DNA of 14,064 nucleotides from a virus. Its lineage: Duplodnaviria > Heunggongvirae > Uroviricota > Caudoviricetes. How positions within the stretch are numbered: position 1 is the first letter of the stretch; each line of letters starts with the position of its first letter. Of the stretch, positions 1 through 14,064 are shown piece after piece. The stretch is from the IMG/VR virus record IMGVR_UViG_2563366799_000001. One strand, 5' to 3'. The position numbers and the translations under genes are program-made. The notes under the pieces were generated by a model that saw only the letters and a list, made by a program, of their open reading frames with translations, had not been told where the DNA came from and ran no database searches.

Positions 1-95
1 TCAAGGCATTTACGGGAGAAAAAATCGGCTCAAACATGAAGAAATGAAATGACTGAGTCAGCCGAGAAGAATTTCCCCGCTTATTCGCACCTTCC
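1..95 (-). mobile_element. IS5 terminal segment (partial copy, body extends beyond window start)
   Basis: Bases 1..95 are the reverse complement of the IS5 end that begins GGAAGGTGCGAATAAGCGGGGAAATTCTTCTCGGCTGACTCAGTCATTTCATTTCTTCATGTTTGAGCCG, and of window bases 13973..14064. Flank next to the IS end is TTAG (96..99), compatible with the IS5 YTAR target. Confidence 0.9.
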
Positions 96-856
96 TTAGC
101 AGCTCTAATACCGCCCTGAATCGCAAGCCCTGTATGGCAATTTGACATTGAGCATGATTGCCATCTGTGCAAGGGACCTCCATTAATCGAAACTTCCAGC
201 AGATCTTTATCTCCTTTCATCCTGACCCCTTCATACAACATATCAAGACGCTCAACAATCAATCCTGTTGGAGGTTCCATTTTTAGAACGAGGGCAAACT
301 CTCCTGGCCCACGTCGTATTGTTATACGCGGGCCGGTACACTCCACATCCCAATTGTCTGATTTAGCTTTCCATTCATTTTCATCTATCAGTAAAGTCTC
401 CTTACCAATAGAATTACAGAAAATTCCTGATAAAAGCATCGGTCCATGTGGTATGGGTGAAGGTTTCACAGAAAGAATGGGTTGTTCGTTGACTACAATC
501 AAATTTTGACAGTTATGAAACGTCACTCCTGCAAATTTTACTGTTATAGGCTCATTATGAAAATCAAACATTTCATTTGCAAAACCAGCCTGTAAGCACT
601 TGGGATTTCTGTCAGCTATTTCCACTGTCTGTGCTGAAAGTCTACCACGAGCTCTTTTTTGATTGCATTGGGAGCAAAGAAGTGTCATTCCATTCGGATC
701 ATGTATTTTGGCATCAACGAAGTCAGGTTTAAAATGCTCATAATCATAAAATCCAAATCCACAAATTACACAGCCAAAGCCGCACCTTTGCCTTATCTGA
801 CGTTTTATTGTCTCAGGTATTCTTCTTGAGAGCCCGTGTTTATTAATATTGTCCAT
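96..856 (-). CDS. HNH-motif nuclease-like protein, 3' end disrupted by IS5 (reading frame runs into the IS without a stop)
   Basis: Minus-strand ATG at 856, first in-frame ATG after an upstream stop. The N-terminus carries CGFGCVIC ... YDYEHFKP ... DPNGMTLLCSQCNQK, an HNH-like Cys/His/Asn pattern. About 253 native codons, then the frame continues into IS5. Low GC relative to neighbours. Absent from the ORF track because it has no stop inside the window. Confidence 0.6.
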
Positions 857-1030
857 ATGGTTAGTACGCTATAAGTTTGTTTCTATAATTTTACCACAAT
901 AGATAAGTTTGTATCAGAAATCGCTATATGGAGTGAGCGGAATATTTATATTATTCATACAATTGCTCTCCCGTACGCAGCCCGCACTTCCGTCATCGCA
1001 GAATGACGGAAGCCTTACTAACTAGCGCCT

Positions 1031-1354
1031 TTATTGAAACAGATTCTGAGGTAAATGCGGCAATACTCGACTCCACTTATCATCCTGCCACGGCTGAAGT
1101 TTTACATGTGCCGTTTCTCGGGCGAGGATTGCTCGCGCTCTGTTGAGTATCTGGGGATATTCTTGCTCGATGGAAGTGAAGTGACCAGCCTCACCATGCT
1201 CCGCATCCTGAAGAAGATGAGTAACGTTCTGGTAGGCAATTAACATCACATTCCCTGCTCGCCATAACCAGGCGAGTGTGCAAAGTTCGTTATCAGTGAA
1301 TTGTTTTGTGATTGGGAATTGTTGAACTGCTAGAACGAGAACGCCAGCATCCAT
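1031..1354 (-). CDS. hypothetical protein (107 aa)
   Basis: Complete ORF in the track with a plausible AGGGA ribosome-binding site upstream; no recognisable motif. Lies between the HNH gene and the recombinase on the same strand. Confidence 0.35.
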   Translation of the reverse strand: MDAGVLVLAVQQFPITKQFTDNELCTLAWLWRAGNVMLIAYQNVTHLLQDAEHGEAGHFTSIEQEYPQILNRARAILARETAHVKLQPWQDDKWSRVLPHLPQNLFQ

Positions 1355-1465
1355 TGGCAGTCCCTATAGTAAAACCATAGCTCAGGACGCTTCGTTCAGG
1401 ATAGATACTTTTATTGTACTTACCTAACTTTCTTACTATAGCACGGTTGAAAAAGTGATTATTAC

Positions 1466-2992
1466 TCAAAAATGAACCTCACCATCAACCATATATTTGA
1501 GAGTACTTATCGCCTGCTGGGCGGATATTGTTTTCATTAAAGGATAGTGTTTAAAAACAATGCCATTCATAAAATAGATATCACAGGTTTTATTATCTGT
1601 ATTGATTATGATTTTTTCGAATGTTTTATAGGCAAGTGTACGACATAGCTCTCGCCCATTTTTACTGGTTAAGTCAATAGCATGAAAATCACCAAGTGAA
1701 CTCACCGCTTTACTCTTCAAAGTTTTTAATGATACCGAAGCCCTTCGTAATTCCTTATCTAATACTCTGATTTTTTCTGCTATAGCGGTAACTTCAGGCG
1801 CGACAGACAATGCAACGATTAAATTATTAATTTTCATCTGAAGCTCAATAATTTTTAACTCTAAAGTTTCATTAGCATCTTTCTTGTTTTCAACTGGTTG
1901 AATTTTGCCACAATTAAAAAGCAATTCATTAATGATATTATAATCAACCAAATCTCTTTTTATTGATGGCCTGTCACATCGATGTAATCTTCTCATCGGA
2001 CAAACATAATAGCCATGCAAACTTCCAGATACCGCATGAACAATCATGGTATTACCACAAGCCTCACACTTCATAACTGTTCGAAGTAGATTTATTAGCA
2101 TAGGATTCTTGCTACTATTGCTAATACCAAAAGGTGCCAACCGAATTTCCTGTACAGCGTAAAACAAATCATCTGATATGACTCTGGGATAATAGCCAGC
2201 GATTTCACTTATCCCTTTCCCTCTTGCACGATATGAAGGTACGCATATACCTATCAGAGCTTTATTCGCTAATAATTTTTCAATTACAGAAGGCCCCCAT
2301 GCACTTTCTTTTCCTGAGAAATTCTTTACAGCATGATCATTTAAATACTTGGCTATTGCATTCAATGAGCGCCTTTCCATCCTGAGTTTAAAAATTAGCT
2401 CAATAGTTTTCACCCTGTCGGGGTCTGGAACAAAGGCCGTTCTTTTGTCATCTAAGGAGAGCCATCTCGGACAAGACGCCGTCATAATCGTACCTGATTC
2501 CAGTGCATCCTGCCGTTTTTTCTTCCATGATAATTTAACCCGACTTGACTTTATCTCGCTTTCTTCATTTGCCCTTTGTGCTATAAGTATGGCTTTTATT
2601 AATGAATATGGCTCATTCAAAGAGTCAATATTATAGACTGTATTGTCGCAAAGAGTTATAACATCAATACCGTGATTCAAAATCAATTTCAGACGTTCAA
2701 TCGCTTCACCGACTTTTTCTCTTGAAAGTCTGTCCAGACTTTCAACTAACAATGTAGTTCCTGGCAATATATAACCATGCTCTATAGCATCTAAAAATTC
2801 CGAAAAAGCTCCTGATTGTGCATGCTTTCCTTTGAATGCACTTAATCCTAAATCTTCATATGTTATGGTATCAAGATAATAATCACTATTTACCTTTAAC
2901 CATTCAGCAATAAGTCTTCTCTGTCGGTTTAATGAGTCGCCAGACATCTGACCTGGTGATGAAAATCGCATATATGCTATGGCTTTTTTCAT
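1466..2992 (-). CDS. ybcK: large serine recombinase (resolvase-type catalytic domain, recombinase domain, zinc-ribbon), YbcK-like
   Basis: 508-aa ORF. N-terminal YMRFSSPGQ matches the serine-recombinase catalytic motif; C-terminal cysteine cluster CEACGNT ... YYVCP ... HRCD. AGGTG ribosome-binding site 5 nt upstream. Same length and same position next to emrE as DLP12 ybcK. Confidence 0.88.
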   Translation of the reverse strand: MKKAIAYMRFSSPGQMSGDSLNRQRRLIAEWLKVNSDYYLDTITYEDLGLSAFKGKHAQSGAFSEFLDAIEHGYILPGTTLLVESLDRLSREKVGEAIERLKLILNHGIDVITLCDNTVYNIDSLNEPYSLIKAILIAQRANEESEIKSSRVKLSWKKKRQDALESGTIMTASCPRWLSLDDKRTAFVPDPDRVKTIELIFKLRMERRSLNAIAKYLNDHAVKNFSGKESAWGPSVIEKLLANKALIGICVPSYRARGKGISEIAGYYPRVISDDLFYAVQEIRLAPFGISNSSKNPMLINLLRTVMKCEACGNTMIVHAVSGSLHGYYVCPMRRLHRCDRPSIKRDLVDYNIINELLFNCGKIQPVENKKDANETLELKIIELQMKINNLIVALSVAPEVTAIAEKIRVLDKELRRASVSLKTLKSKAVSSLGDFHAIDLTSKNGRELCRTLAYKTFEKIIINTDNKTCDIYFMNGIVFKHYPLMKTISAQQAISTLKYMVDGEVHF

Positions 2993-3236
2993 GGTGACAC
3001 CTGCTAACGTATGCTTTTATAAATCTTAGTGGTGAGATATAATTTTTGTTTAATTTTTATTTAAAAAGACAATTACGATCACATTCTCTTGAATATACAA
3101 CAATAATCGTATTGCAATTTGCTTACGCAATAATCTTGAAGGCACAAAAGAATACATAAAAACTAAAAACATTAACAAAAGCGGCCCATGTAAAGATATG
3201 AACCGCCATATTTCAGTCTTTTAAAAGAAATTATTT

Positions 3237-3569
3237 TTAATGTGGTGTGCTTCGTGACAATAAATTAATAACCAACACACCGGCACAAATCAACATCATG
3301 CCTATAACGGCTGGCAGGTCCAGCCGTTGGACGAAAAACCCCCATGACAGTAAGCTAATCAGGACAATACCGACTCCTGACCAGATAGCATAAGCAATCC
3401 CTGTAGGAATATAAGCCAGCGTCTGAGCTAATAACCAGAATGATGCACAGTAACAAATAATTGTACCAACAGATGGCCATAACCGTGTAAAACCTTCTGA
3501 AAACTTCATTAAGGTTGTACCAATGACCTCTGCAAGTATTGCACCACCAAGATAAATATAAGGATTCAT
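3237..3569 (-). CDS. emrE: small multidrug resistance efflux transporter EmrE
   Basis: Translation from MNPYIYLGGAILAEVIGTTLMKFSEGF ... LLSRSTPH is 110 aa and matches EmrE nearly residue for residue from recall. AGGAAAG ribosome-binding site before ATG at 3569. The track ORF (3237..3623) includes 18 upstream codons judged non-coding. Confidence 0.93.
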   Translation of the reverse strand: MNPYIYLGGAILAEVIGTTLMKFSEGFTRLWPSVGTIICYCASFWLLAQTLAYIPTGIAYAIWSGVGIVLISLLSWGFFVQRLDLPAVIGMMLICAGVLVINLLSRSTPH

Positions 3570-4014
3570 AGCATATTCTTTCCTGTTCAAACTGGAGAGA
3601 ATTGTACTACAGATTGAACTCAACTCACCGGTTTCATCATTGTGTATCCATTGATGTTCTTTTGTATACCCTCAATATCCGTTTCATCGCGGTACTCCGG
3701 CGACACTCCTTAAAAATCAGGTTCGGCTCACCTTTCCTGCCCGTTCTCCCCGGGTAGCAAACCGATAATACACCGTTCGCCAGTCCTTACTATCAATGAC
3801 CAAGATTCCTGCCCATATCATTTTAGCCGCAGCCTAATTTATGCTGGTTATTGTTACGTGTGAATTCAGTTAGCTGCATAAATTGTCACGGAAGTGATAC
3901 ATCGATATTATCGAGAAATTCACTCGAATTTATACGATTGAAACTGCACTTATATCTGTTTTAAATACTCCGAACACTCTTTACAACAACTGTGTGAAAA
4001 TGGAGATAATTAAA

Positions 4015-4743
4015 ATGAAAAAGGGTTTGGCTATTTCATTCATTGCCGCCGTGTGTGCATTTGCTGCAAATGCGAGTGCTGAGGAAAGTAAAAACGGGTT
4101 TTATCTAACCGGTAAAGCCGGTGCCTCTGTGGCGTCGTTATCAGACCAGCGTTTTCAGTATGATGAAGGCGATTGGTCAACTGGATTTAAGGGCAGCAAC
4201 AACCATGACACGGCGTTTAGTGGTGGTATCGCAGCGGGTTATGACTTTTACCCACAGTTCAGTATTCCTGTTCGTACGGAGCTTGAATTTTATGCCCGCG
4301 GAAAGGCTGATACAGAATACAATCTTTTTAAGGACGACTGGGTGCGAGCTGACATGAAGAATGAGGTGTCAGTCAACAGCCTGATGTTGAACGCGTACTA
4401 TGACTTCCGGAACGACAGCGCATTCACCCCTTGGGTGTCCGCAGGGATTGGTTATGCAAGAATTCATCAGAAATCAACGGGTGTCATCACCTTCGATAAT
4501 GGATACGGATACAGTGACCGCGCATCTGATTCCCGTTCAGATTCTTCTGATAACTTCGCATGGAGCCTTGGTGCTGGCGTCCGCTATGACGTAACTCCAG
4601 ATGTCAGTCTGGACATCAGTTATCGCTACCTGGATGCAGGTGATGCCAATGTGACTTATACCGATGATTGGGGCGATAAATATAAATCAGATGTTGATGT
4701 AAAAAGTCATGACATTATGCTTGGTGTAACCTATAACTTCTGA
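4015..4743 (+). CDS. outer-membrane beta-barrel protein with signal peptide
   Basis: Start at internal ATG 4015 (MKKGLAISFIAAVCAFAANASA-EE signal peptide with AxA cleavage motif) preceded by GGAG. Alternating aromatic/hydrophilic beta-strand pattern and C-terminal ...GVTYNF, the terminal-Phe signature of outer-membrane barrels. Confidence 0.8.
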   Translation: MKKGLAISFIAAVCAFAANASAEESKNGFYLTGKAGASVASLSDQRFQYDEGDWSTGFKGSNNHDTAFSGGIAAGYDFYPQFSIPVRTELEFYARGKADTEYNLFKDDWVRADMKNEVSVNSLMLNAYYDFRNDSAFTPWVSAGIGYARIHQKSTGVITFDNGYGYSDRASDSRSDSSDNFAWSLGAGVRYDVTPDVSLDISYRYLDAGDANVTYTDDWGDKYKSDVDVKSHDIMLGVTYNF

Positions 4744-4790
4744 ACAAACCTTTTCTAAATTATAATTACACGCTTACTGTGATTAACTAA

Positions 4791-4826
4791 AGCCCCCTGC
4801 AATATATTGCTATGGGGGGCTCTTTC
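4791..4826 (+). terminator. putative rho-independent terminator after the outer-membrane protein gene
   Basis: GC stem GCCCCC / GGGGGC around a 16-17 nt loop (TGCAATATATTGCTA), followed by a short T-containing tract (TCTTTC). About 48 nt after the stop codon. Confidence 0.45.
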
Positions 4827-5144
4827 GCTCATCGTGCAGGATGATTTTTGCCTAATTCCGTTATCACCACAATAATATTCATCGACATTTTCTTAATGGA
4901 CACCTGAAAATATTTTATCGGGTAATATTCCGAGATTTTATTGTTTTTATTCTTTTCCGTTATCTCTGATAATATTGTAAGCATCCGGTGAACTCGCCTT
5001 GCGTGGACTAGCCAGTCGTTGTAGCACTGACGCCGCTGCGTTGAGTTCTTTTTTTCGCCATCAGCTCTCCTGCTTCTGTAGATAAAGAAGAGACAGAAGA
5101 ATGGCGTTGATCACAACGACCAGTAATGCGAATTCATCGGCCCC

Positions 5145-5237
5145 TCACACTGTTACAGCTGATAGTGCAACAACCTCCAACGCACAGAAGCTCTTATGCG
5201 TCCCCAGGTAATCAATAATTGCCTCTTTGCCCGTCAT
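5145..5237 (-). pseudogene. ren: ren remnant (30 codons, premature stop)
   Basis: ATG overlaps the P stop codon (ATGA) as in lambda. Translation MTGKEAIIDYLGTHKSFCALEVVALSAVTV* matches the lambda Ren N-terminus (MTGKEAIIHYLGTHNSFCAPDVAAL...) then terminates. Confidence 0.55.
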
Positions 5238-5935
5238 ACACTTGCTCCTTTCAGCCCAAACTTCGCTTTGATTTCTGCGATCTTCGCCAGAGCCTGAACA
5301 CGATTAAGCGGTCTCCCGCCCATAACAGGAAGTTGTTTTACTGGTTCAGGTATCGCCTCACCACGGTTAATTCGCGCTGTCATACAGGCCAGTTCATCGG
5401 CAGCCTTGCGCCGTAATTCCGCATCAGTCAGCGCATTGGCCCGCATGTTCTGATACAGGTTGGTAACCAGCCAGTAGTGCGCGTTTGATTTCCACGGATA
5501 AGACTCTGCATCCGGATACAGGCCACGTTTCCGGCAATACTCGTAAACCATATCAACCAGCTCGCTGGCGTTTGGCAGCCCGGCGGTAACGGATGCTTCT
5601 TCCCGGCACCAGGCAACAAACTGCCCGGGTGATGGCAGGAATGGTCGATTCTGCCGACGGGCTACGCGCATTCCTGCGTTAACCTGTTCCATCGTGGTGA
5701 TCCCGTTTTCCCGGAAAGCCAGAACCCACTGGCGGCGGATTTCGTTCAGTTCGTTCTGGTCCCGGTTAGCCAGGCTCGCCGGGAAAGTTGCCAGTAACTG
5801 GCTGAACACACCATTGATGATCTGCGCTACCTGTTGTACCTGCGGCTTTTCGTCGTACTGTTCCGGCATGTTGTTGGCGATCCGGCGCATCTGCTCACGG
5901 TCAAAGTTAACCATCTGTGCGGCGATGTTTTTCAT
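5234..5935 (-). CDS. P: lambda-type replication protein P (DnaB helicase loader)
   Basis: 233-aa translation MKNIAAQMVNFDREQMRRIANNMPEQYDEKPQ ... KFGLKGASV matches lambda P almost exactly from recall. GGGGTGG ribosome-binding site; start overlaps the stop of the upstream O fragment. Confidence 0.95.
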   Translation of the reverse strand: MKNIAAQMVNFDREQMRRIANNMPEQYDEKPQVQQVAQIINGVFSQLLATFPASLANRDQNELNEIRRQWVLAFRENGITTMEQVNAGMRVARRQNRPFLPSPGQFVAWCREEASVTAGLPNASELVDMVYEYCRKRGLYPDAESYPWKSNAHYWLVTNLYQNMRANALTDAELRRKAADELACMTARINRGEAIPEPVKQLPVMGGRPLNRVQALAKIAEIKAKFGLKGASV

Positions 5936-6397
5936 AAATCCACCCCGTAAATCCAGTCAGTGTTTGTCAGGTCGAGTTTTGATTTTCCGGCTGTCACGCC
6001 AGCCTGTTGCTTGTTACGGTTGATTTCGAGTTGGGTCCACTTGTCGCGGAGTTTGGCCGGACTTAGCACGTTACCGGACCAGAAGTTGTCCTGGCATGCC
6101 CAGCGGAACAGCACGCACATGTCGCGGTGGTTACGGCCGTCACGTTCACGCATCAGACGGATATCGTTAGCCCACCCTGCAAAATTCGGTTTTCTGGCTG
6201 ATGGCGCGATGGTCTTCACCATGTCAAACATCCACTCTGCGGCGGTCAGGTCTTCTGCTGTCCCCCACTTGCTGCCGCTCTGAATCGCAGCATCCGCTTT
6301 CACCACAGGAAGGTCGTTTTCTGGCAGGTCAGAGGATTCGCCAGAATTCTCGGACGAATAAGGTTTTATATTGTCTTTTGTTAGTTTGTCTTTTGTG
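5932..6397 (-). pseudogene. O: replication protein O, C-terminal (P-interacting) part only; N-terminal origin-binding domain deleted
   Basis: Translation from ...[59 protein letters not shown] ... TDWIYGVDL matches the lambda O C-terminal half. The first ~35 codons of the 191-aa track ORF (5932..6507) are antisense to gam and are not O. Confidence 0.8.
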
Positions 6398-6400
6398 TTT
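6344..6400 (-). promoter_or_regulatory. remnant of ori-lambda AT-rich segment (iteron array absent)
   Basis: In O sense: ACACAAAAGACAAACTAACAAAAGACAATATAAAACCTTATTCGTCCGAGAATTCTGGCGAATCC, resembling the A/T-rich part of ori-lambda including the GAATTC site inside O. No TCCCTCAAA-type iterons upstream; the sequence switches to gam at about 6405..6415. Confidence 0.45.
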
Positions 6401-6414
6401 ACCTGATTCGGGTA

Positions 6415-6534
6415 AGTGCCTTTACCCGTGCATTTGATGACGATGTTGAGTTTCAGGAGCGCATGGCAGAACACATCCGGTACATGGTTGAAACCATTGC
6501 TCACCATCAGGTTGATATTGATTCAGAGGTATAA
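6415..6534 (+). pseudogene. gam: gam 3' fragment (last ~40 codons, no start)
   Basis: Plus-strand frame reads ...[39 protein letters not shown], matching the lambda Gam C-terminus. Ends 5 nt before the bet start, as in lambda. Confidence 0.75.
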
Positions 6535-6539
6535 AACGG

Positions 6540-7325
6540 ATGAGTACAGCACTCGCAACGCTGGCTGGGAAGCTGGCTGAACGTGTCGGCATGGATTCTG
6601 TCGACCCACAGGAACTGATCACCACTCTTCGCCAGACGGCATTTAAAGGTGATGCCAGCGATGCGCAGTTCATCGCATTGTTGATCGTCGCCAACCAGTA
6701 CGGCCTTAATCCGTGGACGAAAGAAATTTACGCCTTCCCTGACAAGCAGAACGGCATCGTTCCGGTGGTGGGCGTTGATGGCTGGTCCCGCATCATCAAT
6801 GAAAACCAGCAGTTTGATGGCATGGACTTTGAGCAGGACAATGAATCCTGCACATGCCGGATTTACCGCAAGGACCGTAATCATCCGATCTGCGTTACCG
6901 AGTGGATGGATGAATGCCGCCGCGAACCATTCAAAACCCGTGAAGGCAGAGAAATCACGGGGCCGTGGCAGTCGCATCCTAAACGGATGTTACGGCATAA
7001 AGCCATGATTCAGTGTGCCCGTCTCGCCTTCGGATTTGCGGGTATCTATGACAAGGATGAAGCCGAGCGCATTGTCGAAAATACCGCATACACTGCAGAA
7101 CGTCAGCCGGAACGCGACATCACTCCGGTTAACGATGAAACCATGCAGGAGATTAACACTCTGCTGATTGCCCTGGACAAAACATGGGATGACGACTTAT
7201 TGCCGCTCTGTTCCCAGATATTTCGCCGCGACATTCGCGCATCGTCGGAACTGACACAGGCCGAAGCAGTGAAAGCTCTTGGATTCCTGAAACAGAAAGC
7301 CTCTGAACAGAAGGTGGCTGCATGA
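6540..7325 (+). CDS. bet: Red beta single-strand annealing protein (Bet)
   Basis: 261-aa translation [38 protein letters not shown] ... EQKVAA matches lambda Bet from recall; stop overlaps the exo start. Confidence 0.96.
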
Positions 7326-8002
7326 CACCGGACATTATCCTGCAGCGTACCGGGATCGACGTGAGAGCTGTCGAACAGGGGGATGATGCGTGGCACAAAT
7401 TACGGCTCGGCGTCATCACCGCTTCAGAAGTTCACAACGTGATAGCAAAACCCCGCTCAGGAAAGAAATGGCCTGACATGAAAATGTCCTACTTCCACAC
7501 CCTGCTTGCCGAGGTTTGCACCGGTGTGGCTCCGGAAGTTAACGCTAAGGCGCTGGCCTGGGGAAAACAGTACGAGAACGACGCCAGAGCCCTCTTTGAG
7601 TTCACTTCCGGCGTGAATGTTACTGAATCCCCGATCATCTATCGCGACGAAAGTATGCGCACCGCCTGCTCTCCCGATGGTTTATGCAGTGACGGCAACG
7701 GCCTTGAACTGAAATGCCCGTTTACCTCCCGGGATTTCACGAAATTCCGGCTCGGTGGTTTCGAGGCAATAAAATCGGCTTACATGGCCCAGGTGCAGTA
7801 CAGCATGTGGGTGACTCGAAAAGATGCCTGGTACTTTGCCAACTATGACCCGCGCATGAAGCGTGAAGGCCTGCATTATGTCGTGATTGAGCGGAATGAA
7901 AAGTACATGGCGAGTTTTGACGAGATGGTGCCGGAGTTCATCGAAAAAATGGACGAGGCACTGGCTGAAATTGGTTTTGTATTTGGGGAGCAATGGCGAT
8001 GA
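7322..8002 (+). CDS. exo: lambda exonuclease (Red alpha, 5'-3' dsDNA exonuclease)
   Basis: 226-aa translation [47 protein letters not shown] ... FVFGEQWR matches lambda Exo from recall. Confidence 0.96.
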
Positions 8003-8181
8003 AGCATCCTCACGATAATATCCGGGTAGGCGCGATCACTTTCGTCTACTCCGTTACAAAGCGAGGCTGGGTATTTCCCGGCCTTTCTGTTACCCGAAAT
8101 CCCCTGAAAGCACAGCGGCTGGCTGAGGAGATAAATAATAAACGGGGAGCTGTATGCACAAAGCATCTCCTGTTGAGTTAA
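7993..8181 (+). CDS. lambda orf60a-like small hypothetical protein
   Basis: 62-aa [29 protein letters not shown]... directly after exo with overlapping start, the position of lambda orf60a. Confidence 0.55.
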
Positions 8182-8345
8182 GAACGAGCATTGAGATGGC
8201 ACATAGCCTCGCTCAAATTGGAGTCAGGTTTGTGCCAATGCCAGTAGAAACAGACGAAGAATTTCATACGTTAGCCGCATCCCTTTCACAAAAGCTGGAA
8301 ATGATGGTGGCGAAAGCAGAAGCAGATGAGAGAGACCAGGTATGA
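8154..8345 (+). CDS. lambda orf63-like small hypothetical protein
   Basis: 63-aa [26 protein letters not shown]..., next in the series of small early-left ORFs. Confidence 0.55.
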   Translation: MHKASPVELRTSIEMAHSLAQIGVRFVPMPVETDEEFHTLAASLSQKLEMMVAKAEADERDQV

Positions 8346-8421
8346 CAACCACTGAATGCATTTTTCTGGCAGCGGGCTTCATATTCTGTGTGCTTATGCT
8401 TGCCGACATGGGACTTGTTCA

Positions 8422-8637
8422 ATGACACCTCAGCAAGAAAACGCCCTTCGCAGTATTGCCCGTCAGGCTAATTCTGAAATCAAAAAAGCCAGACAGCAGT
8501 TTCCGGATAAAAACGTCGATGACATTTGCCGTAGCGTACTGAAGAAGCACCGCGAAACGGTAACGCTGATGGGATTCACACCGACTCATTTAAGCCTGGC
8601 GATCGGCATGTTAAACGGCGTCTTTAAGGAGCGATGA
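8422..8637 (+). CDS. lambda orf61-like small hypothetical protein
   Basis: Internal ATG at 8422 (MTPQQENALRSIARQANSEIKK...) chosen over the track start 8356; the upstream 22 codons look non-coding. Confidence 0.5.
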   Translation: MTPQQENALRSIARQANSEIKKARQQFPDKNVDDICRSVLKKHRETVTLMGFTPTHLSLAIGMLNGVFKER

Positions 8638-8658
8638 ACATGAAAAGCAAAATCATCA

Positions 8659-8682
8659 GGGAGCTACAGGCTCCTTTTTTAT
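8659..8682 (+). terminator. putative rho-independent terminator
   Basis: GGAGC-TACAG-GCTCC hairpin (8660..8674) followed by TTTTTT ATT. Confidence 0.5.
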
Positions 8683-8735
8683 TATTCGCATTCACCCTCA
8701 AGCGTATTAACCAACAATTCAGGGATTAATGGAAG

Positions 8736-8954
8736 ATGGCAGACATCATTGATTCAGCATCAGAAATCGAAGAATTACAGCGCAATACAGCAATAAAAAT
8801 GCGTCGTCTGAACCACCAGGTTATATCTGCCACTCATTGTTGTGAGTGTGGCGATCCCATAGATGAACGAAGACGCCTGGCCATTCAGGGTTGTCGGACT
8901 TGTGCAAGTTGCCAGGAGGAGATCGAACTTAAGAACAAACAATGGGGATTGTGA
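8736..8954 (+). CDS. TraR/DksA-family C4-type zinc-finger protein
   Basis: 72 aa with CCECGDPIDERRRLAIQGCRTCASCQ (CxxC-17-CxxC) near the C-terminus, typical of phage TraR/DksA-like proteins. GGAAG ribosome-binding site. Confidence 0.7.
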   Translation: MADIIDSASEIEELQRNTAIKMRRLNHQVISATHCCECGDPIDERRRLAIQGCRTCASCQEEIELKNKQWGL

Positions 8955-9001
8955 TGGCCTCAAAGCAGCAAATTTCAACATCGTCCAACTGAGGTGTAAA
9001 A

Positions 9002-9280
9002 ATGTTCAGAATCATTTTTCCTAACACCTGGTACGTCGACCACCACGGCACTCCCTGCAAAATCCTGCGTTCTACCCACAACAAAGTTCACTACATCCGA
9101 AAAGGCAGAACATGTATCGCCAGCATGTTCCGCTTTAATCATGACTTTGAACCTGTGAATAAAGCTGATGCAGATCGGATAGCAGAAGAGATCGAAACGG
9201 CAGAACACATTAAGAAGTTACGTGACATGCGTTCAAAAAGCAGAGGTAACCATGGAATCATACAGCCTCACACTCGATGA
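9002..9280 (+). CDS. hypothetical prophage protein (92 aa)
   Basis: Complete ORF with strong GAGGTG ribosome-binding site 5 nt upstream; no recognisable motif. 3' end overlaps the xis start. Confidence 0.45.
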   Translation: MFRIIFPNTWYVDHHGTPCKILRSTHNKVHYIRKGRTCIASMFRFNHDFEPVNKADADRIAEEIETAEHIKKLRDMRSKSRGNHGIIQPHTR

Positions 9281-9602
9281 GGCCTGTCAGTTTCTCAAGA
9301 TATCCAGACCTACCGCTACCAACTGGATACGAACAGGCCGCCTACAGGCAACACGCAAAGACCCCACTAAACTAAAATCTCCTTACCTCACAACACGACA
9401 AGCCTGCATTGCGGCGCTTCAGTCTCCGCTGCATACTGTCCAGGTGAGCGCGGGTGATGGCATAACAGAGGAAAGAAAATGTCACTCTTCCGCAGAGGTG
9501 AAATATGGTACGCCAGTTTCACATTGCCGAACGGTAAAAGATTTAAACAGTCTCTTGGAACAAAGGACAAAAGGCAGGCGACAGAACTCCATGACAAGCT
9601 AA
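9252..9602 (+). CDS. xis: excisionase (P22-type Xis, 116 aa)
   Basis: Internal ATG 9252 ([32 protein letters not shown]..., helix-turn-helix) preceded by GAGGT. Sits immediately upstream of int and overlaps it by about 124 nt in another frame. Confidence 0.65.
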
Positions 9603-10642
9603 AGGCTGAAGCATGGCGGGTCAGCAAACTTGGTGAAATACCTGATATAACGTTCGAGGAAGCGTGTGTCAGGTGGCTTGAAGAGAAAGCACATAAAAAA
9701 TCACTGGACGATGACAAAAGCCGGATCGGATTCTGGCTTCAACATTTCGCAGGAATGCAACTAAGAGACATTACTGAATCAAAAATTTATTCAGCAATGC
9801 AGAAAATGACGAACCGGCGTAATGAGGAAAACTGGAAACTCAGGGCAGAAGCATGCAGAAAAAAAGGGAAACCTGTTCCAGAATACAAGCCAAAACCAGC
9901 GTCTGTTGCAACGAAGGCTACGCATCTTTCATTTATAAAAGCCCTACTAAGAGCCGCAGAGCGTGAATGGAAAATGCTGGATAAGGCACCAATTATTAAA
10001 GTGCCTCAACCAAAGAATAAACGGATCCGCTGGCTGGAGCCCCATGAAGCACAAAGGCTGATTGATGAATGTCCGGAGCCATTAAAGTCTGTTGTTGAAT
10101 TTGCACTGGCAACAGGCTTAAGACGCTCGAACATCATCAACCTTGAATGGCAACAAATAGATATGCAGCGCCGGGTGGCATGGATAAACCCGGAAGAGAG
10201 TAAATCAAACCGCGCAATCGGCGTTGCGCTGAATGATACTGCATGTCGCGTATTGAAAAAACAAATCGGGAATCATCACCGTTGGGTATTTGTGTACAAG
10301 GAAAGCTGTACCAAACCAGACGGAACGAAAGCGCCAACAGTAAGGAAGATGCGGTATGACGCAAACACAGCCTGGAAAGCGGCGCTGAGACGGGCTGGTA
10401 TTGATGATTTCAGATTTCACGACTTGAGACACACCTGGGCAAGTTGGCTGGTTCAAGCCGGAGTCCCGTTGTCAGTGTTACAGGAAATGGGAGGCTGGGA
10501 GTCTATCGAAATGGTTCGTCGATATGCTCACCTTGCACCTAATCACCTTACCGAACACGCACGGCAAATAGACTCGATCCTGAACCCATCGGTCCCAAAT
10601 TTGTCCCAGTCAAAAAATAAGGAAGGTACTAATGATGTGTAA
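9479..10642 (+). CDS. int: P22/DLP12-type tyrosine integrase
   Basis: 387-aa ORF. N-terminus [34 protein letters not shown]; catalytic-domain motifs [12 protein letters not shown] (HxxR) and VRRYAHL (Tyr). 3' end abuts a tRNA-Thr 3' fragment, the P22-family att arrangement. Confidence 0.93.
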
Positions 10643-10656
10643 CTTATTGATTTAAA

Positions 10657-10708
10657 TGGTGCCGATAATAGGAGTCGAACCTACGACCTTCGCATTACGA
10701 ATGCGAAG
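10657..10708 (-). other. 3' fragment of tRNA-Thr(CGU) (thrW-type att core); 5' half of the tRNA absent
   Basis: Reverse complement reads ...TCGCATTCGTAATGCGAAGGTCGTAGGTTCGACTCCTATTATCGGCACCA: anticodon stem-loop with CGU anticodon, variable loop, T arm, acceptor 3' strand and CCA. Sequence to the right does not continue as the D arm or 5' acceptor strand. Confidence 0.8.
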
Positions 10709-10790
10709 TTTTTATATTTTAACTGCTTGAACAACCATCAGAAATCACAAATTTATCATTTTAAATCATAATATTAAAACAAAAAACCTG

Positions 10791-10820
10791 TTGATGTAAA
10801 TTGATGAGTGTTGATGTTTA
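10791..10820 (+). repeat. three tandem 10-bp-phased TTGATG repeats upstream of the second integrase
   Basis: TTGATGTAAA / TTGATGAGTG / TTGATGTTTA at 10791, 10801 and 10811, about 70-100 bp upstream of the int ATG at 10889. Confidence 0.6.
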
Positions 10821-10888
10821 TCCTTTCAATTTACTTACACCAGCCGTTACATTACTGTAAACCGTAATCCCCAACAGGAACCCTAAAA

Positions 10889-12208
10889 ATGGCGCTTTCA
10901 AGACAAAAACTAACCTTCGAACGAATTCGAAGATTTACTTTACCTGAAGGGAAAAACCAAGTTTTCCTTTGGGATACGGACGTAACAAGCTTGGCATGTC
11001 GAGCAACTCGTGGAGCAAAAGCCTTTGTATTCCAAAGCCTGTATGCGGGAAAAACCCTTCGCATGACCATTGGCAACATTAACGATTGGAGGATTGATGA
11101 TGCGAGGGCCGAAGCCAGGCGACTGCAAACATTAATCGATACTGGGATAGATCCGCGTATAGCTAAGGCGGAAAAAATTGCTGAAGCGGAATCACAGCAG
11201 GCTGAATCTCGTAAAACGAAGGCAACCTTTTCAAGCGCTTGGGAAGATTATCTTGATGAATTGAGAACCGGAATCAGCGCAAAAACTAAACGCCCCTACT
11301 CTGCACGCTACATTGCCGATCACGTTAACTTGTCCAGTCGTGGAGGCGAAAGTAAAAAAAGAGGCCGGGGCCCAACCTCACCTGGGCCACTGGCTAGCCT
11401 GCTCGACCGACCATTATCAGAACTAACACCAGAGAACATTGCCGAATGGCTAAGTACAGAGAGACAAAATCGGCCTACCGTCACTGCTCATGCCTACCGT
11501 CTGTTGCGTGCATTCATCAAATGGGCTAATTACCAGAAAAAATATCAGGGAATAATCGATGGCGATCTTGCACAAGATCATAACGTGAGAAAAATGGTTC
11601 CAATATCAGCGAGCAAAGCGGGAGATTGCTTACAAAAAGAACAGCTCAAAAGCTGGTTCAGTGCCGTGCGTAGCCTCAATAATCCCATTGCATCAGCCTA
11701 TCTCCAAGTGCTTTTGCTCACCGGTGCACGGCGTGAAGAAATTTCCTCACTTCGCTGGTCTGACATAGATTTCAAATGGTCAAGCATGAGAATTAAAGAC
11801 AAGATCGAAGGCGAGCGAATTATCCCCCTCACTCCCTATGTTTCTGACTTGTTACGCTCACTGATGGAGATCCCCAATCGTGGTACAAACGAGGAGAATT
11901 GGGTTTTCAGAAGTAACAGCAAAAGTGGCAAAATTATTGAACCGCGTTCAGCACATAATAGAGCATTAACTCGCGCGGAGTTACCACATATCAGCTTGCA
12001 CGGATTGCGCCGTAGTTTTGGGACCCTCGCTGAATGGGTCGAAGTACCAACAGGTATTGTTGCGCAGATTATGGGCCATAAGCCTAGCGCTCTTGCTGAA
12101 AAGCACTATCGCCGCCGTCCATTAGATTTGCTAAGAAAATGGCATGAAAAAGTTGAATTATGGATCTTAGAAGAAGCAAAAATAAAAAACAACGTTGATA
12201 AGCGTTGA
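10889..12208 (+). CDS. P4-type tyrosine integrase
   Basis: 439-aa ORF. C-terminal catalytic motifs LHGLRRSFGTLAEW and KHYRRR (Tyr); long N-terminal arm-binding-type domain. Unrelated in sequence to the upstream P22-type Int. Confidence 0.88.
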   Translation: MALSRQKLTFERIRRFTLPEGKNQVFLWDTDVTSLACRATRGAKAFVFQSLYAGKTLRMTIGNINDWRIDDARAEARRLQTLIDTGIDPRIAKAEKIAEAESQQAESRKTKATFSSAWEDYLDELRTGISAKTKRPYSARYIADHVNLSSRGGESKKRGRGPTSPGPLASLLDRPLSELTPENIAEWLSTERQNRPTVTAHAYRLLRAFIKWANYQKKYQGIIDGDLAQDHNVRKMVPISASKAGDCLQKEQLKSWFSAVRSLNNPIASAYLQVLLLTGARREEISSLRWSDIDFKWSSMRIKDKIEGERIIPLTPYVSDLLRSLMEIPNRGTNEENWVFRSNSKSGKIIEPRSAHNRALTRAELPHISLHGLRRSFGTLAEWVEVPTGIVAQIMGHKPSALAEKHYRRRPLDLLRKWHEKVELWILEEAKIKNNVDKR

Positions 12209-12225
12209 TTTTATCAAATATCAAC
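12194..12225 (+). repeat. GTTGAT direct repeats (10-bp spacing) followed by inverted copies, at the 3' end of the integrase gene
   Basis: GTTGAT at 12194 and 12204, then ATCAA at 12213 and ATCAAC at 12220, forming an imperfect palindrome that overlaps the int stop codon. Same motif as the array at 10791..10820. Confidence 0.55.
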
Positions 12226-12247
12226 AACTTACATAAAATCACATGTG

Positions 12248-12275
12248 TTGACAGAAATTTTTTTTCAGTTATCTT
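12248..12275 (+). promoter_or_regulatory. putative sigma70 promoter for the downstream operon
   Basis: Consensus -35 TTGACA at 12248..12253, 16-bp T-rich spacer, -10-like TATCTT at 12270..12275. Not verified. Confidence 0.3.
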
Positions 12276-12322
12276 TTATTACTGCTAACTACATTCACTC
12301 ACTAAGCAGGAGATTAACTACA

Positions 12323-12748
12323 GTGACTAACCCAATAACTGTATCAAGAGAAGACCGAAGTGCGGAAATCAGAGCGAGATGGGGTTTACATCCGACTAAA
12401 AACAAAAGTTCTAATTTTTGGGAAACAACAATTCAGCGTTTTAATAATAGTAGTACTGACCGAATACTACCTCTTTGGCACCGTGTTTCAAAACTTTTAG
12501 TTGCTATTAGGAATGTAGTCAATACTATAACATGCCCTTTTCCACCAAAGGGGAATACTTCCCGCTCACGCCGAAGTTCAACAACGTCATCAAAAAACTC
12601 ATCATCATCTTCATCGGATGGTAGTAGTAGCGACCCCGATCCCGATAGAGACCCCATATTCACCCCTTTTCATTTCATTCTTTCATCTCTGTTAAAAACA
12701 ATGATCGTCTTATTTGCCCACATATCAAATGTTGGGGTGATGAAATGA
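12323..12748 (+). CDS. hypothetical protein with Ser/Asp-rich low-complexity segment (GTG start); coding strand uncertain
   Basis: GTG at 12323 preceded by AGGAG 10 nt upstream; stop overlaps the next gene's ATG (ATGA coupling). Contains SRSRRSSTTSSKNSSSSSSDGSSSDPDPDRD. An antisense ORF (12433..12663) with an acidic stretch is an alternative. Confidence 0.3.
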   Translation: MTNPITVSREDRSAEIRARWGLHPTKNKSSNFWETTIQRFNNSSTDRILPLWHRVSKLLVAIRNVVNTITCPFPPKGNTSRSRRSSTTSSKNSSSSSSDGSSSDPDPDRDPIFTPFHFILSSLLKTMIVLFAHISNVGVMK

Positions 12749-12966
12749 GCGATATCAAACATCAAAAACCCTCTCAGTCACAACTAATTTCTACCCGCGA
12801 GTTAGCTAATATTATTGGCTATGAAGTACAAACTATTCGAGCTTGGCTTTGCAAAGACAAACTGCCTAATGGTTTACCGCGACCGAAGAAAATTAAAAAC
12901 CGACACTATTGGTCACGTAAAGACATTGATAGATACCTATTAACCTTCTCAGTATATAGTAACTAA
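12745..12966 (+). CDS. AlpA-like helix-turn-helix phage regulatory / excisionase-family protein
   Basis: 73 aa. ISTRELANIIGYEVQTIRAWL then LPRPKKIKNRHYWSRKDIDRYL, the same pattern as AlpA (HTH followed by FPKK...W...EIDEWL). Position just downstream of a P4-type integrase is typical. Confidence 0.6.
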   Translation: MSDIKHQKPSQSQLISTRELANIIGYEVQTIRAWLCKDKLPNGLPRPKKIKNRHYWSRKDIDRYLLTFSVYSN

Positions 12967-12977
12967 TAGAGGCCTCC

Positions 12978-13003
12978 CCCGGCTATTCTAAAGAATAGCC
13001 GGG
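12978..13003 (+). terminator. perfect 11-bp-stem hairpin (possible terminator or protein-binding palindrome)
   Basis: CCCGGCTATTC-TAAA-GAATAGCCGGG, 12 nt after the AlpA-like stop; followed by TTAGTTAAT (weak U tract). Confidence 0.4.
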
Positions 13004-13088
13004 TTAGTTAATACAAACCTTCCATTAACAATGGGGGGAGATTAATACTATTTATCACATCTCACATTAACAAAATTCAAGGTCACAT

Positions 13089-13853
13089 ATGAAAAAACGC
13101 ATCACTTTCAGCGTAAACAATAGTTCTACTATTGATGCAATTGACGACTATAGCAATGCAAAAGGATACTCCAGGTCAGAGGTGATATCATTTTTATTAA
13201 ACGCCACAGTCCCAGCATTGAATAAAATAACATCGCAATATCATATAGCTCAAACTTTGGAGTCAACATTAGGCTGTATTTTTGAAGAGAAGGCCCCGTC
13301 AATAGCACGGGGGGAGCCAAAATTAACTTACGAAGAGTTTTTTCATTCCGTCTGGAACACTCACATTCGACACCGGAACGAGGTTATCGACCAGAATTTT
13401 TATGCACACAAAATATCTCATGATAAGATGGGGAAGAGTGAAAAAAAATTAATTCATGAAAAGCTCACATACATTATAAAAAGCTTCAATGTAAAAAAAG
13501 CAATTTTTATTTACACAGATCGGCGCGTGAACCACAAACATCTAATTGCAGGAGGGTTGTCAAATATCATACTGATAAAGGAAACAGTTTACGATGGTTG
13601 TTTTTTTGATTTGAGCAGCATTGTGATTATGCCAATCTTTGAACTTATTACATTTGGAATTGAAGAGGTATTGAAAAGAAATAAAATCCACCATAAACAA
13701 TCATGCTATTGCTGGATACCAATTTATTACACAAATGATCTAGCGGTAATGGTCCCGGTGATTGCCGAAGGCGATACACCTCAAAAGGCGATGAAAGGAG
13801 GAGATGCCATCATTATTAACCCCTTTAACGGTGAAGTAAACCATACTTTCTGA
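13089..13853 (+). CDS. hypothetical protein, N-terminal ribbon-helix-helix-like motif plus ~200-aa domain of unknown function
   Basis: 254-aa ORF with AAGG ribosome-binding site. N-terminus MKKRITFSVNNSSTIDAIDDYSNAKGYSRSEVISFLL fits the CopG/Arc-type RHH pattern (beta-strand then helices). Remainder unrecognised. Markedly AT-rich relative to the prophage genes. Confidence 0.65.
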   Translation: MKKRITFSVNNSSTIDAIDDYSNAKGYSRSEVISFLLNATVPALNKITSQYHIAQTLESTLGCIFEEKAPSIARGEPKLTYEEFFHSVWNTHIRHRNEVIDQNFYAHKISHDKMGKSEKKLIHEKLTYIIKSFNVKKAIFIYTDRRVNHKHLIAGGLSNIILIKETVYDGCFFDLSSIVIMPIFELITFGIEEVLKRNKIHHKQSCYCWIPIYYTNDLAVMVPVIAEGDTPQKAMKGGDAIIINPFNGEVNHTF

Positions 13854-13935
13854 TACCAATGTTAAGCATAACCACTTAGTTGCATACATCTCGACAGTAT
13901 GGAGTTAGTACCTAATAGCTTGATGAGGGTAAAAG

Positions 13936-13972
13936 ATGCCTACTAACAAAGCAAAATCAAAGAAAATTCTAG
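13936..13972 (+). pseudogene. 5' stub of a gene (12 codons) cut off by IS5
   Basis: GAGGG ribosome-binding site, then ATG at 13936 encoding MPTNKAKSKKIL; the IS5 end starts at 13973 and the frame stops shortly inside it. Confidence 0.35.
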
Positions 13973-14064
13973 GGAAGGTGCGAATAAGCGGGGAAATTCT
14001 TCTCGGCTGACTCAGTCATTTCATTTCTTCATGTTTGAGCCGATTTTTTCTCCCGTAAATGCCT
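13973..14064 (+). mobile_element. IS5 terminal segment (partial copy, body extends beyond window end)
   Basis: GGAAGGTGCGAATAAGCGGGGAAATTCTTCTCGGCTGACTCAGTCATTTCATTTCTTCATG..., the IS5 terminus; exact inverted copy of bases 1..92. Preceded by CTAG (YTAR target). Confidence 0.92.

Follow-up and report, generated by a model that had tools for sequence, protein, structure and literature searches.

The window, meaning the whole 14,064-nt stretch of DNA analysed here, begins and ends inside IS5 and carries in between the early region of a lambdoid prophage, a remnant of the thrW tRNA gene and one end of a thrW island. Its parent is the E. coli scaffold KE137211.1 (GCA_000408645.1), where it corresponds to the reverse complement of positions 2444-16507 of the scaffold stretch used for comparison and to exactly one contig between two N-gaps, with runs of 1895 and 795 N. 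Both gaps fall inside the IS5 copies, at the two window ends: short-read assembly broke at these repeats, and the IS5 bracket coincides with the ends of the window only because the assembler terminated the contig there and the window comprises all of it. Short-read assemblers in fact normally yield contigs that finish on either side in one and the same IS terminus.

Judged by their sequence, both end elements are IS5 (IS5 family), like the insH copies of E. coli K-12. Taking as a reference the annotated 1195-bp copy of E. coli Res13-Lact-ER02-39, positions 1..95 (plus strand) hold the last 95 nt of one copy, at the transposase-distal end (IRR, ...CGCTTATTCGCACCTTCC), and positions 13973..14064 (minus strand) the last 92 nt of a second copy, with the same terminus in inverted orientation. 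Identity is complete in both cases (95/95 and 92/92), and a previous sequence-only reading of this DNA had already described the two ends as exact inverted copies of one IS5 terminus. The outer IS5 ends in the scaffold are likewise identical to the reference (92/92 and 188/188 nt), and so are the two copies to each other in their visible parts (92/92 at each end). A repeat search within the window returned the inverted arms (4-99 and 13969-14064) as 96 nt with 99% complementarity, far beyond chance, the second-best inverted pair being 27-30 nt long at 70-85%. The terminal inverted repeats of 16 bp, GGAAGGTGCGAA(T/C)AAG, are as in IS5. A complete IS5 carries a DDE transposase gene, insH, of 326 aa; here only its start (ATGAGTCATCAACTTACCTTCGCC...) can be seen, with about 40 codons, and Ns stand in the scaffold for the central ~0.9-1.0 kb of both copies. 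The terminus common to both copies adjoins the transposase gene at its 3′ end (under the ISfinder convention, IRR), and the two transposase genes are therefore directed towards the segment: the left one would sit upstream of the window on the plus strand and the right one beyond it on the minus strand, each reading inward.

The target motif of IS5 is YTAR (PMC5009759), and the TTAG next to the left end (96-99) and the CTAG next to the right end (13969-13972), already noticed in the earlier reading, occur at the inner as well as the outer junctions and fit this motif throughout. A single TTAG is present at the empty site of STEC1588, and CTAG is found on both halves of the split island gene, as a 4-bp target duplication. 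Sequence (95, 92, 92 and 188 nt), 16-bp terminal repeats, YTAR and 4-bp duplication are thus all shared with IS5, with no visible difference in the element itself.

Most of the interior derives from a prophage. A DLP12-like block (1031..5935, minus strand with one plus-strand gene, after the STEC1588 annotation and Pfam labels) comprises a P22AR C-terminal domain protein (1031-1354, minus), the serine recombinase YbcK (1466-2992, minus), YlcJ (minus, listed between YbcK and EmrE), EmrE (3237-3569, minus), an outer-membrane beta-barrel protein (4015-4743, plus), a ren fragment (minus, listed between the latter and P) and replication protein P (5234-5935, minus). Replication protein O (5932..6507, minus) is truncated to its C-terminal half and matches only positions 145-317 of the PHROG 277 profile. 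Its N-terminus, together with the immunity region, kil and part of gam, was removed by a 4.8-kb deletion, whose junction was placed at ~6418-6426, with TTACC microhomology, from blastn breakpoints and the sequences. Recombination and early-left genes follow on the plus strand (6540..9602), with bet (6540-7325), exo (7322-8002), DUF1317, DUF1382, TraR-like and DUF4222 genes and an xis-like HTH_17 gene (9252-9602), and then a tyrosine integrase of 387 aa (9479..10642, plus). An identical integrase adjoins thrW-proA in many E. coli. This is a defective ("dead") lambdoid prophage integrated at thrW that lacks its immunity region, O N-terminus and nin region. It shares ybcK, emrE and quuD with DLP12-type prophages and differs from them in its site, thrW instead of argU, and in being now split by an inversion; the argU/DLP12 site suggested by the first BLAST matches was rejected, since the attachment remnant is thrW.

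This remnant consists of the 3′-terminal 49 nt of thrW tRNA-Thr(CGT) (10657..10705, minus; Rfam tRNA match of 36 bits, alignment to full thrW). An intact tRNA gene at 10660-10732, as the Rfam match could be read, was discarded on the grounds that only these 49 nt of thrW are present, and ARAGORN called no tRNA gene at the remnant. Beyond it lies the integrase-proximal end of a CP4-6/intF-like thrW island (10889..13853, plus), with an integrase of 439 aa (10889-12208), an HTH_17 protein of 73 aa (12745-12966) and a UCP007319 protein of 254 aa (13089-13853), all on the plus strand. As in other tandem thrW elements made of a CP4-6/intF-type island and a lambdoid prophage, an intF-like integrase adjoins a partial thrW, here the attachment-site remnant between the two tandemly integrated elements.

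Each IS5 copy disrupts a gene, as had been proposed. On the left, a prophage gene of 260 aa (hyp260; 96..856, minus) is cut by IS5 6-7 codons ahead of its stop, so that these final codons are lost and the frame continues into the element; the uninterrupted allele (...aaaggatcaTTAGcagctc...) is present in STEC1588. The sequence-only reading had called this an HNH gene: the disruption stands, and the label is weakly suggested by visible Cys pairs and an H/N pattern, with a Pfam HNH match below threshold (E=0.04) and a best PHROG family, 6544, of unknown function. On the right, a helix-turn-helix island gene of 58 aa is cut after codon 12 (MPTNKAKSKKIL/GRPEGSKY...), and its first 12 codons occupy 13936..13972 on the plus strand, with the start at 13936 and not at 13937 as previously given; the empty site is found in ECONIH4. 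The remainder of this gene follows the other IS5 copy in the scaffold.

The outer flanks could be read from the scaffold. Past the IS5 copy on the hyp260 side come the 3′ part of the 58-aa gene and then YagK, HATPase_c_4, Mac and scrK/Y/A/B, and past the copy on the island-gene side comes the Q antiterminator region of the prophage. The junctions of the latter copy are quuD-upstream...cagtaTTAG/IRL and IRR/CTAGaattttc (5′ part of the 58-aa gene), those of the former are hyp260...gagctgCTAA/IRR and IRL/CTAGgaaggcctgaagg (3′ part of the 58-aa gene), and the outermost flanks are therefore ...cagtaTTAG and CTAGgaagg.... Each IS5 thus joins a prophage flank to an island flank, and the disrupted genes are out of their original context, as had been suspected. 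The 4-bp flanks of each copy do not match (TTAG/CTAG and CTAA/CTAG), contrary to the matching repeats by which the same reading would have recognised two simple insertions, and once the inversion is undone one copy is flanked on both sides by CTAG and the other by TTAG. In many genomes, a good number of them located through exact matches to the integrase proteins, the order is uninverted, prophage...int387-thrW′-int439-HTH73-UCP-HTH58-YagK, and Q(-)...int387(+)-thrW-proA is seen as well. In blastn against three uninterrupted relatives, positions 2530-7256 of that scaffold stretch match in minus and 17491-20576 in plus orientation, meeting at the same CTAG, and against STEC1588 the Q region matches in plus and the interior in minus. 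Compared with these relatives, the scaffold places the 13.9-kb interior in opposite orientation to its outer flanks; the inversion that had been anticipated is supported, with reciprocally matching flanking repeats, in an orientation for which the sole source is the scaffolder's bridging of the N-gaps in the two IS5 copies, not contiguous sequence.

A search of 5,426 complete RefSeq E. coli genomes did not recover either inner junction or the outer quuD-IS5 junction, and the junction patterns had no matches in GTDB representative genomes or JGI metagenome contigs. The reconstructed empty site, with quuD-upstream joined directly to hyp260, was also searched for, and none of the genomes has such a join, indicating that a further 1.64 kb is missing and that this is not a natural mosaic junction. 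This 1.64-kb deletion adjoins the prophage IS5 copy. In relatives whose O is truncated in the same way, the hyp260::IS5 junction adjoins proA-thrW and the island is absent. Among sister isolates, GCA_902847415.1 and GCA_049815905.1 are examples with both junctions.

The history that we regard as somewhat probable starts with two nearby IS5 insertions, followed by a recombination that flipped the 13.9-kb interior. Two full inverted copies would have come to lie 13.9 kb apart, one at the TTAG of the prophage gene and the other at the CTAG of the island helix-turn-helix gene (codon 12-13). The prophage copy would be the older one, because it is common to relatives without the island, and the second would stem from a local hop. 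Homologous recombination of the RecA type between the 1.2-kb inverted copies would then have turned around the intervening DNA, which comprises the early region of the prophage, the thrW′ attachment remnant and the two integrase genes, so that each IS5 would join one prophage flank to one island flank. The order of these events, and recombination as the inverting step, we infer. Such behaviour is in keeping with an element that favours nearby sites when it hops and undergoes recombination with copies in its neighbourhood, for which inversions between inverted copies are expected (PMC5009759).

The scaffold structure can be read in other ways. A single event, which we consider unlikely, would have inserted the IS5 at the prophage site into the island CTAG of the same molecule by replicative transposition "in trans", making the copy and the inversion together. 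The structure a-[IS]-t′...a′-[IS′]-t (TTAG/IRL...IRR/CTAG ... CTAA/IRR...IRL/CTAG) is the predicted product of this route, and the sequence is compatible with recombination and one-step transposition alike, since both leave the same product. To our knowledge, replicative intramolecular transposition has been documented in the case of IS26 and Tn3-type elements and not for IS5 proper, and no demonstration of such an inversion for IS5 itself was found in the literature consulted. For IS26 and Tn4401, the same pattern of inverted copies and inverted interior, with one target repeat inside next to one copy and its counterpart outside next to the other, has been taken to infer this pathway (PMC4471558). 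IS26, however, belongs to the IS6 family and forms cointegrates obligatorily, whereas for IS5 the route is a family-level possibility: IS5-family elements are reported to transpose both replicatively and conservatively and to generate deletions next to themselves (PMC11708052). The uninverted intermediate with two IS5 copies was not found among relatives, as a single event would predict, but this absence carries no weight because short-read relatives cannot reveal orientation, and recombination by RecA between inverted repeats of 1.2 kb suffices and is common. It is also rather improbable that nothing was rearranged, and that two independent IS5 insertions and the 1.64-kb deletion beside the prophage copy were followed by a contig misoriented by the scaffolder. 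Taken alone, the four junction sequences suit the uninverted order just as well, links from repeat reads would be ambiguous because both contig ends carry the same IS5 sequence of 92-95 nt, and short-insert data are blind to such inversions (PMC5009759). One gap estimate is too large by ~0.9 kb for a single IS5 (1895 N against ~1011 nt), but the other agrees with the scaffolded order (795 against ~914 needed). Moreover, a scaffolder needs positive links for any contig join, and mate pairs spanning the 1.2-kb IS5 from unique sequence separate the two orientations clearly, given an interior of 13.9 kb. A practical lesson is that a contig ending on either side in one and the same IS terminus does not by itself reveal its true orientation.

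Composite transposons with inverted IS arms, such as Tn5 and Tn10, have cargo DNA bracketed by two inverted IS copies. The bracket described here, with functional outer ends, shares this design, and the sequence-only reading had offered a composite mobile unit as one possibility; such a unit could in principle move (PMC4471558). Its insertion here as a block is nevertheless extremely improbable, and we rejected it on the outer flanks. These are TTAG and CTAG, without a common 4-bp duplication, and both are native neighbours of the interior, one being the missing 3′ part of the gene whose 5′ part sits inside and the other the Q region that belongs to the interior's own prophage. The same two inner junctions recur in all contigs with the IS5-segment-IS5 unit, and there is no sign of movement of the unit.

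Insertion followed by recombination would make this an ordinary and well-known kind of IS-mediated rearrangement, that is, already known biology. As in the chromosomal inversions mediated by E. coli IS elements, identical inverted copies lie at both breakpoints, and the flanks are exchanged reciprocally, with no new junction sequence and in a form invisible to short-insert reads (PMC5009759). The present case differs in being small (13.9 kb) and local, within a thrW prophage/island array and not over a large chromosomal arc, and in the accompanying 1.64-kb deletion that adjoins one copy.

Through the inversion, the two integrase genes and the attachment remnant that the elements share come to face the other way with respect to the outer attachment sites. 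With this arrangement, integrase-mediated excision should become inversion, which may help to fix both elements in the chromosome. A fuller version seems doubtful to us, in which copy and inversion arose in one step and the flip, since the segment that it turned includes the shared thrW′ remnant along with the two integrase genes, also reversed thrW′ with respect to its partners and thereby locked in place both of the tandem mobile elements. The locus would be of small scientific value, as a clean natural example of how local hopping of IS5, adjacent deletion and inversion reshape a thrW prophage/island array.

A repeat search of the window returns one extensive pair of inverted arms, 4-99 and 13969-14064 (96 nt, 99% complementary), all remaining inverted pairs being of 30 nt or less and 70-89%. 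These arms combine IS5 sequence (95 nt and 92 nt) with a neighbouring tetranucleotide, TTAG at 96-99 beside the left copy and CTAG at 13969-13972 beside the right one; both tetranucleotides conform to YTAR, the motif that IS5 targets (PMC5009759). The sequence-only reading had described inverted copies of one IS5 terminus with YTAR-type flanks, and the comparison with an annotated 1195-bp IS5 from another E. coli genome bears this out, with 95/95 and 92/92 identical positions; the elements are IS5 itself. Since the matching end of the annotated element adjoins the transposase stop codon, both copies turn their transposase-distal end (IRR) to the interior, and the two transposase genes are directed inward. 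The IS5 copy used as reference, located between evgA and dsdA (L003 1611-2821), shows unmatched flanks, CTAA / ATAA, adjoins a truncated transporter gene and is probably rearranged as well.

Each copy interrupts a gene whose empty allele exists elsewhere. The left site is intact in STEC1588 (...aaaggatcaTTAGcagctc...), 6-7 codons ahead of the stop of hyp260, a 260-aa prophage gene, and the right one in ECONIH4 (aaaattCTAGgaaggcctgaagg), within a 58-aa helix-turn-helix ORF, beginning MPTNKAKSKKILGRPEG, of the neighbouring island. The two disruptions proposed from the sequence are therefore genuine; the HNH label given to the left gene is weakly supported (Pfam E=0.04), and its best PHROG family is of unknown function.

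A protein look-up with the lineage-specific truncated O led to the 4.66-Mb scaffold KE137211.1 (GCA_000408645.1), where the window is the exact reverse complement of L014 (a part of this scaffold) 2444-16507, between runs of 1895 and 795 N. As it spans exactly from one N-run to the other, the window is one whole contig, whose ends lie inside IS5 because these repeats stopped the assembler. The second gap fits one IS5 (795 N vs ~914 needed), whereas the first (L014 549-2443) exceeds by ~0.9 kb the ~1011 nt that would complete one. Several contigs of 13.9-14.2 kb, from isolates as well as metagenomes, terminate at the same two inner junctions, so the double-IS5 state is a lineage marker and not a one-off. 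A same-lineage metagenome contig (L018 12380-12395) stops in another IS5 end inside ybcK, beside a non-YTAR ...gagctat, which may reflect a further insertion, a rearrangement or a chimeric contig end.

In the scaffold, quuD (Q antiterminator) and its upstream region (...cagtaTTAG) are followed by IS5 (IRL, gap, IRR) and by CTAGaattttc... with the 5' part of the 58-aa gene; after the whole interior, ...gagctgCTAA precedes IS5 (IRR, gap, IRL) and CTAGgaaggcctgaagg... with the 3' part of this gene, and then YagK, HATPase_c_4, Mac and scrK/Y/A/B. The halves of the 58-aa gene thus adjoin different IS5 copies, in agreement with the suspicion that the disrupted genes were out of their original context. 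In blastn comparisons with three uninterrupted relatives, the interior's island portion gives minus-strand alignments and the sequence following the second IS5 gives plus-strand ones, with the same CTAG as their meeting point; STEC1588 matches the Q region in plus and the prophage interior in minus orientation. Moreover, the flanks are unmatched at each copy (TTAG/CTAG and CTAA/CTAG), the opposite of the matched repeats and syntenic flanks that the sequence-only reading took to speak against an inversion, and re-flipping the interior pairs them as CTAG/CTAG at one IS5 and TTAG/TTAG at the other. Scaffold order and blastn strands hence place the interior opposite to both flanks, one of the possibilities raised by that reading, and the inversion is probably present in the isolate. 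We go no further because orientation rests on scaffolding through N-gaps, one gap is oversize, and a search of complete E. coli genomes, GTDB representatives and JGI metagenome contigs found none of the junctions; inversions of this kind escape short-insert data (Lee et al., PMC5009759).

As to how this order arose, three sister 33-kb contigs (L015, L025, L028) carry the truncated O and the hyp260::IS5 junction, with thrW-proA-proB straight after the integrase and no island, so that the prophage IS5 is older than both the island and the second IS5. A prophage at thrW would first have gained IS5 in hyp260, an island would then have integrated at thrW in the window lineage, a second IS5 would have landed 13.9 kb off in opposite orientation, and recombination of the two copies, the route towards which we lean, would have flipped the interior. 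One-step replicative intramolecular transposition yields an identical product, though we regard it as unlikely. Equally improbable in our judgement is a mis-oriented contig with no real inversion, an explanation in keeping with the oversize gap and with the four junction sequences, which by themselves are equally compatible with the uninverted order. The composite mobile unit also envisaged by the sequence-only reading is excluded, as the outer flanks share no duplication and are those that natively adjoin the interior.

The outer TTAG by quuD (L014 453-456) is not the natural continuation of hyp260. In STEC1588 (L001 4362-6007) it sits in the quuD-ylcG spacer, 1638 bp from the hyp260 TTAG, and a direct join of the two is absent from the complete genomes searched, which indicates that ~1.64 kb comprising ylcG, rusA, ybcO, ninE, ybcN and the final hyp260 codons was lost beside IS5. 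This is the same type of short IS5-adjacent deletion that has been ascribed to local hopping followed by recombination of nearby direct copies (Lee et al., PMC5009759), and it could also stem from adjacent deletion via intramolecular transposition.

The left 10.6 kb of the interior belongs to a defective lambdoid prophage whose gene content resembles that of DLP12. It represents the early region and encodes a P22AR-domain protein, the YbcK serine recombinase, EmrE, an outer-membrane beta-barrel protein, P, bet, exo, an xis-like protein and a 387-aa integrase. The N-terminal half of O has gone, together with the entire cI/cro-type immunity region, ImmA, DUF4411, kil and a portion of gam, in a 4.8-kb deletion whose junction lies at ~6418-6426 in a TTACC microhomology; what is left is a 191-aa fusion ORF (5932-6507, - strand) and a dead, non-inducible, non-replicating prophage. 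The prophage (1031-10642) has DLP12-type ybcK and emrE, and quuD just beyond the window, but lies at thrW with its 387-aa integrase, whereas DLP12 is integrated at argU; it is a lambdoid mosaic. After the integrase gene, the 3'-terminal 49 nt of tRNA-Thr thrW (10657-10705, - strand) are the attachment remnant that separates two tandemly integrated elements; a full-length tRNA, suggested by a weak Rfam match of 36 bits, was rejected, since ARAGORN finds none and these 49 nt alone correspond to thrW. Beyond lies the integrase end of a CP4-6/intF-type island (439-aa integrase, 73-aa HTH, 254-aa UCP007319 protein, start of the 58-aa gene). Prophage with 387-aa integrase, thrW remnant and 439-aa-integrase island stand in this collinear order in many genomes, which run on via the 58-aa gene to YagK, HATPase_c_4, Mac and the sucrose (scr) cluster. 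A Ser/Asp-rich 167-aa ORF (12245-12748, + strand) that fills the spacer between the 439-aa integrase and 73-aa HTH genes is uncalled in every retrieved annotation and probably non-coding. In another genome (L033 11922-13117), an IS5 variant occupies a CTAA in the 73-aa HTH gene, next to a 3.5-kb deletion reaching just short of the scr genes, which suggests that IS5 targets the island recurrently.

As read here, the rearrangement is a textbook case of inversion mediated by IS copies, together with a deletion alongside; all features are within known behaviour, and the observation is correct but ordinary. The inversion would set the halves of each interrupted gene 15 kb apart, and would turn the thrW remnant and both integrase genes around relative to the outer attachment sites, so that integrase action would invert rather than excise, further immobilising two already decaying elements.
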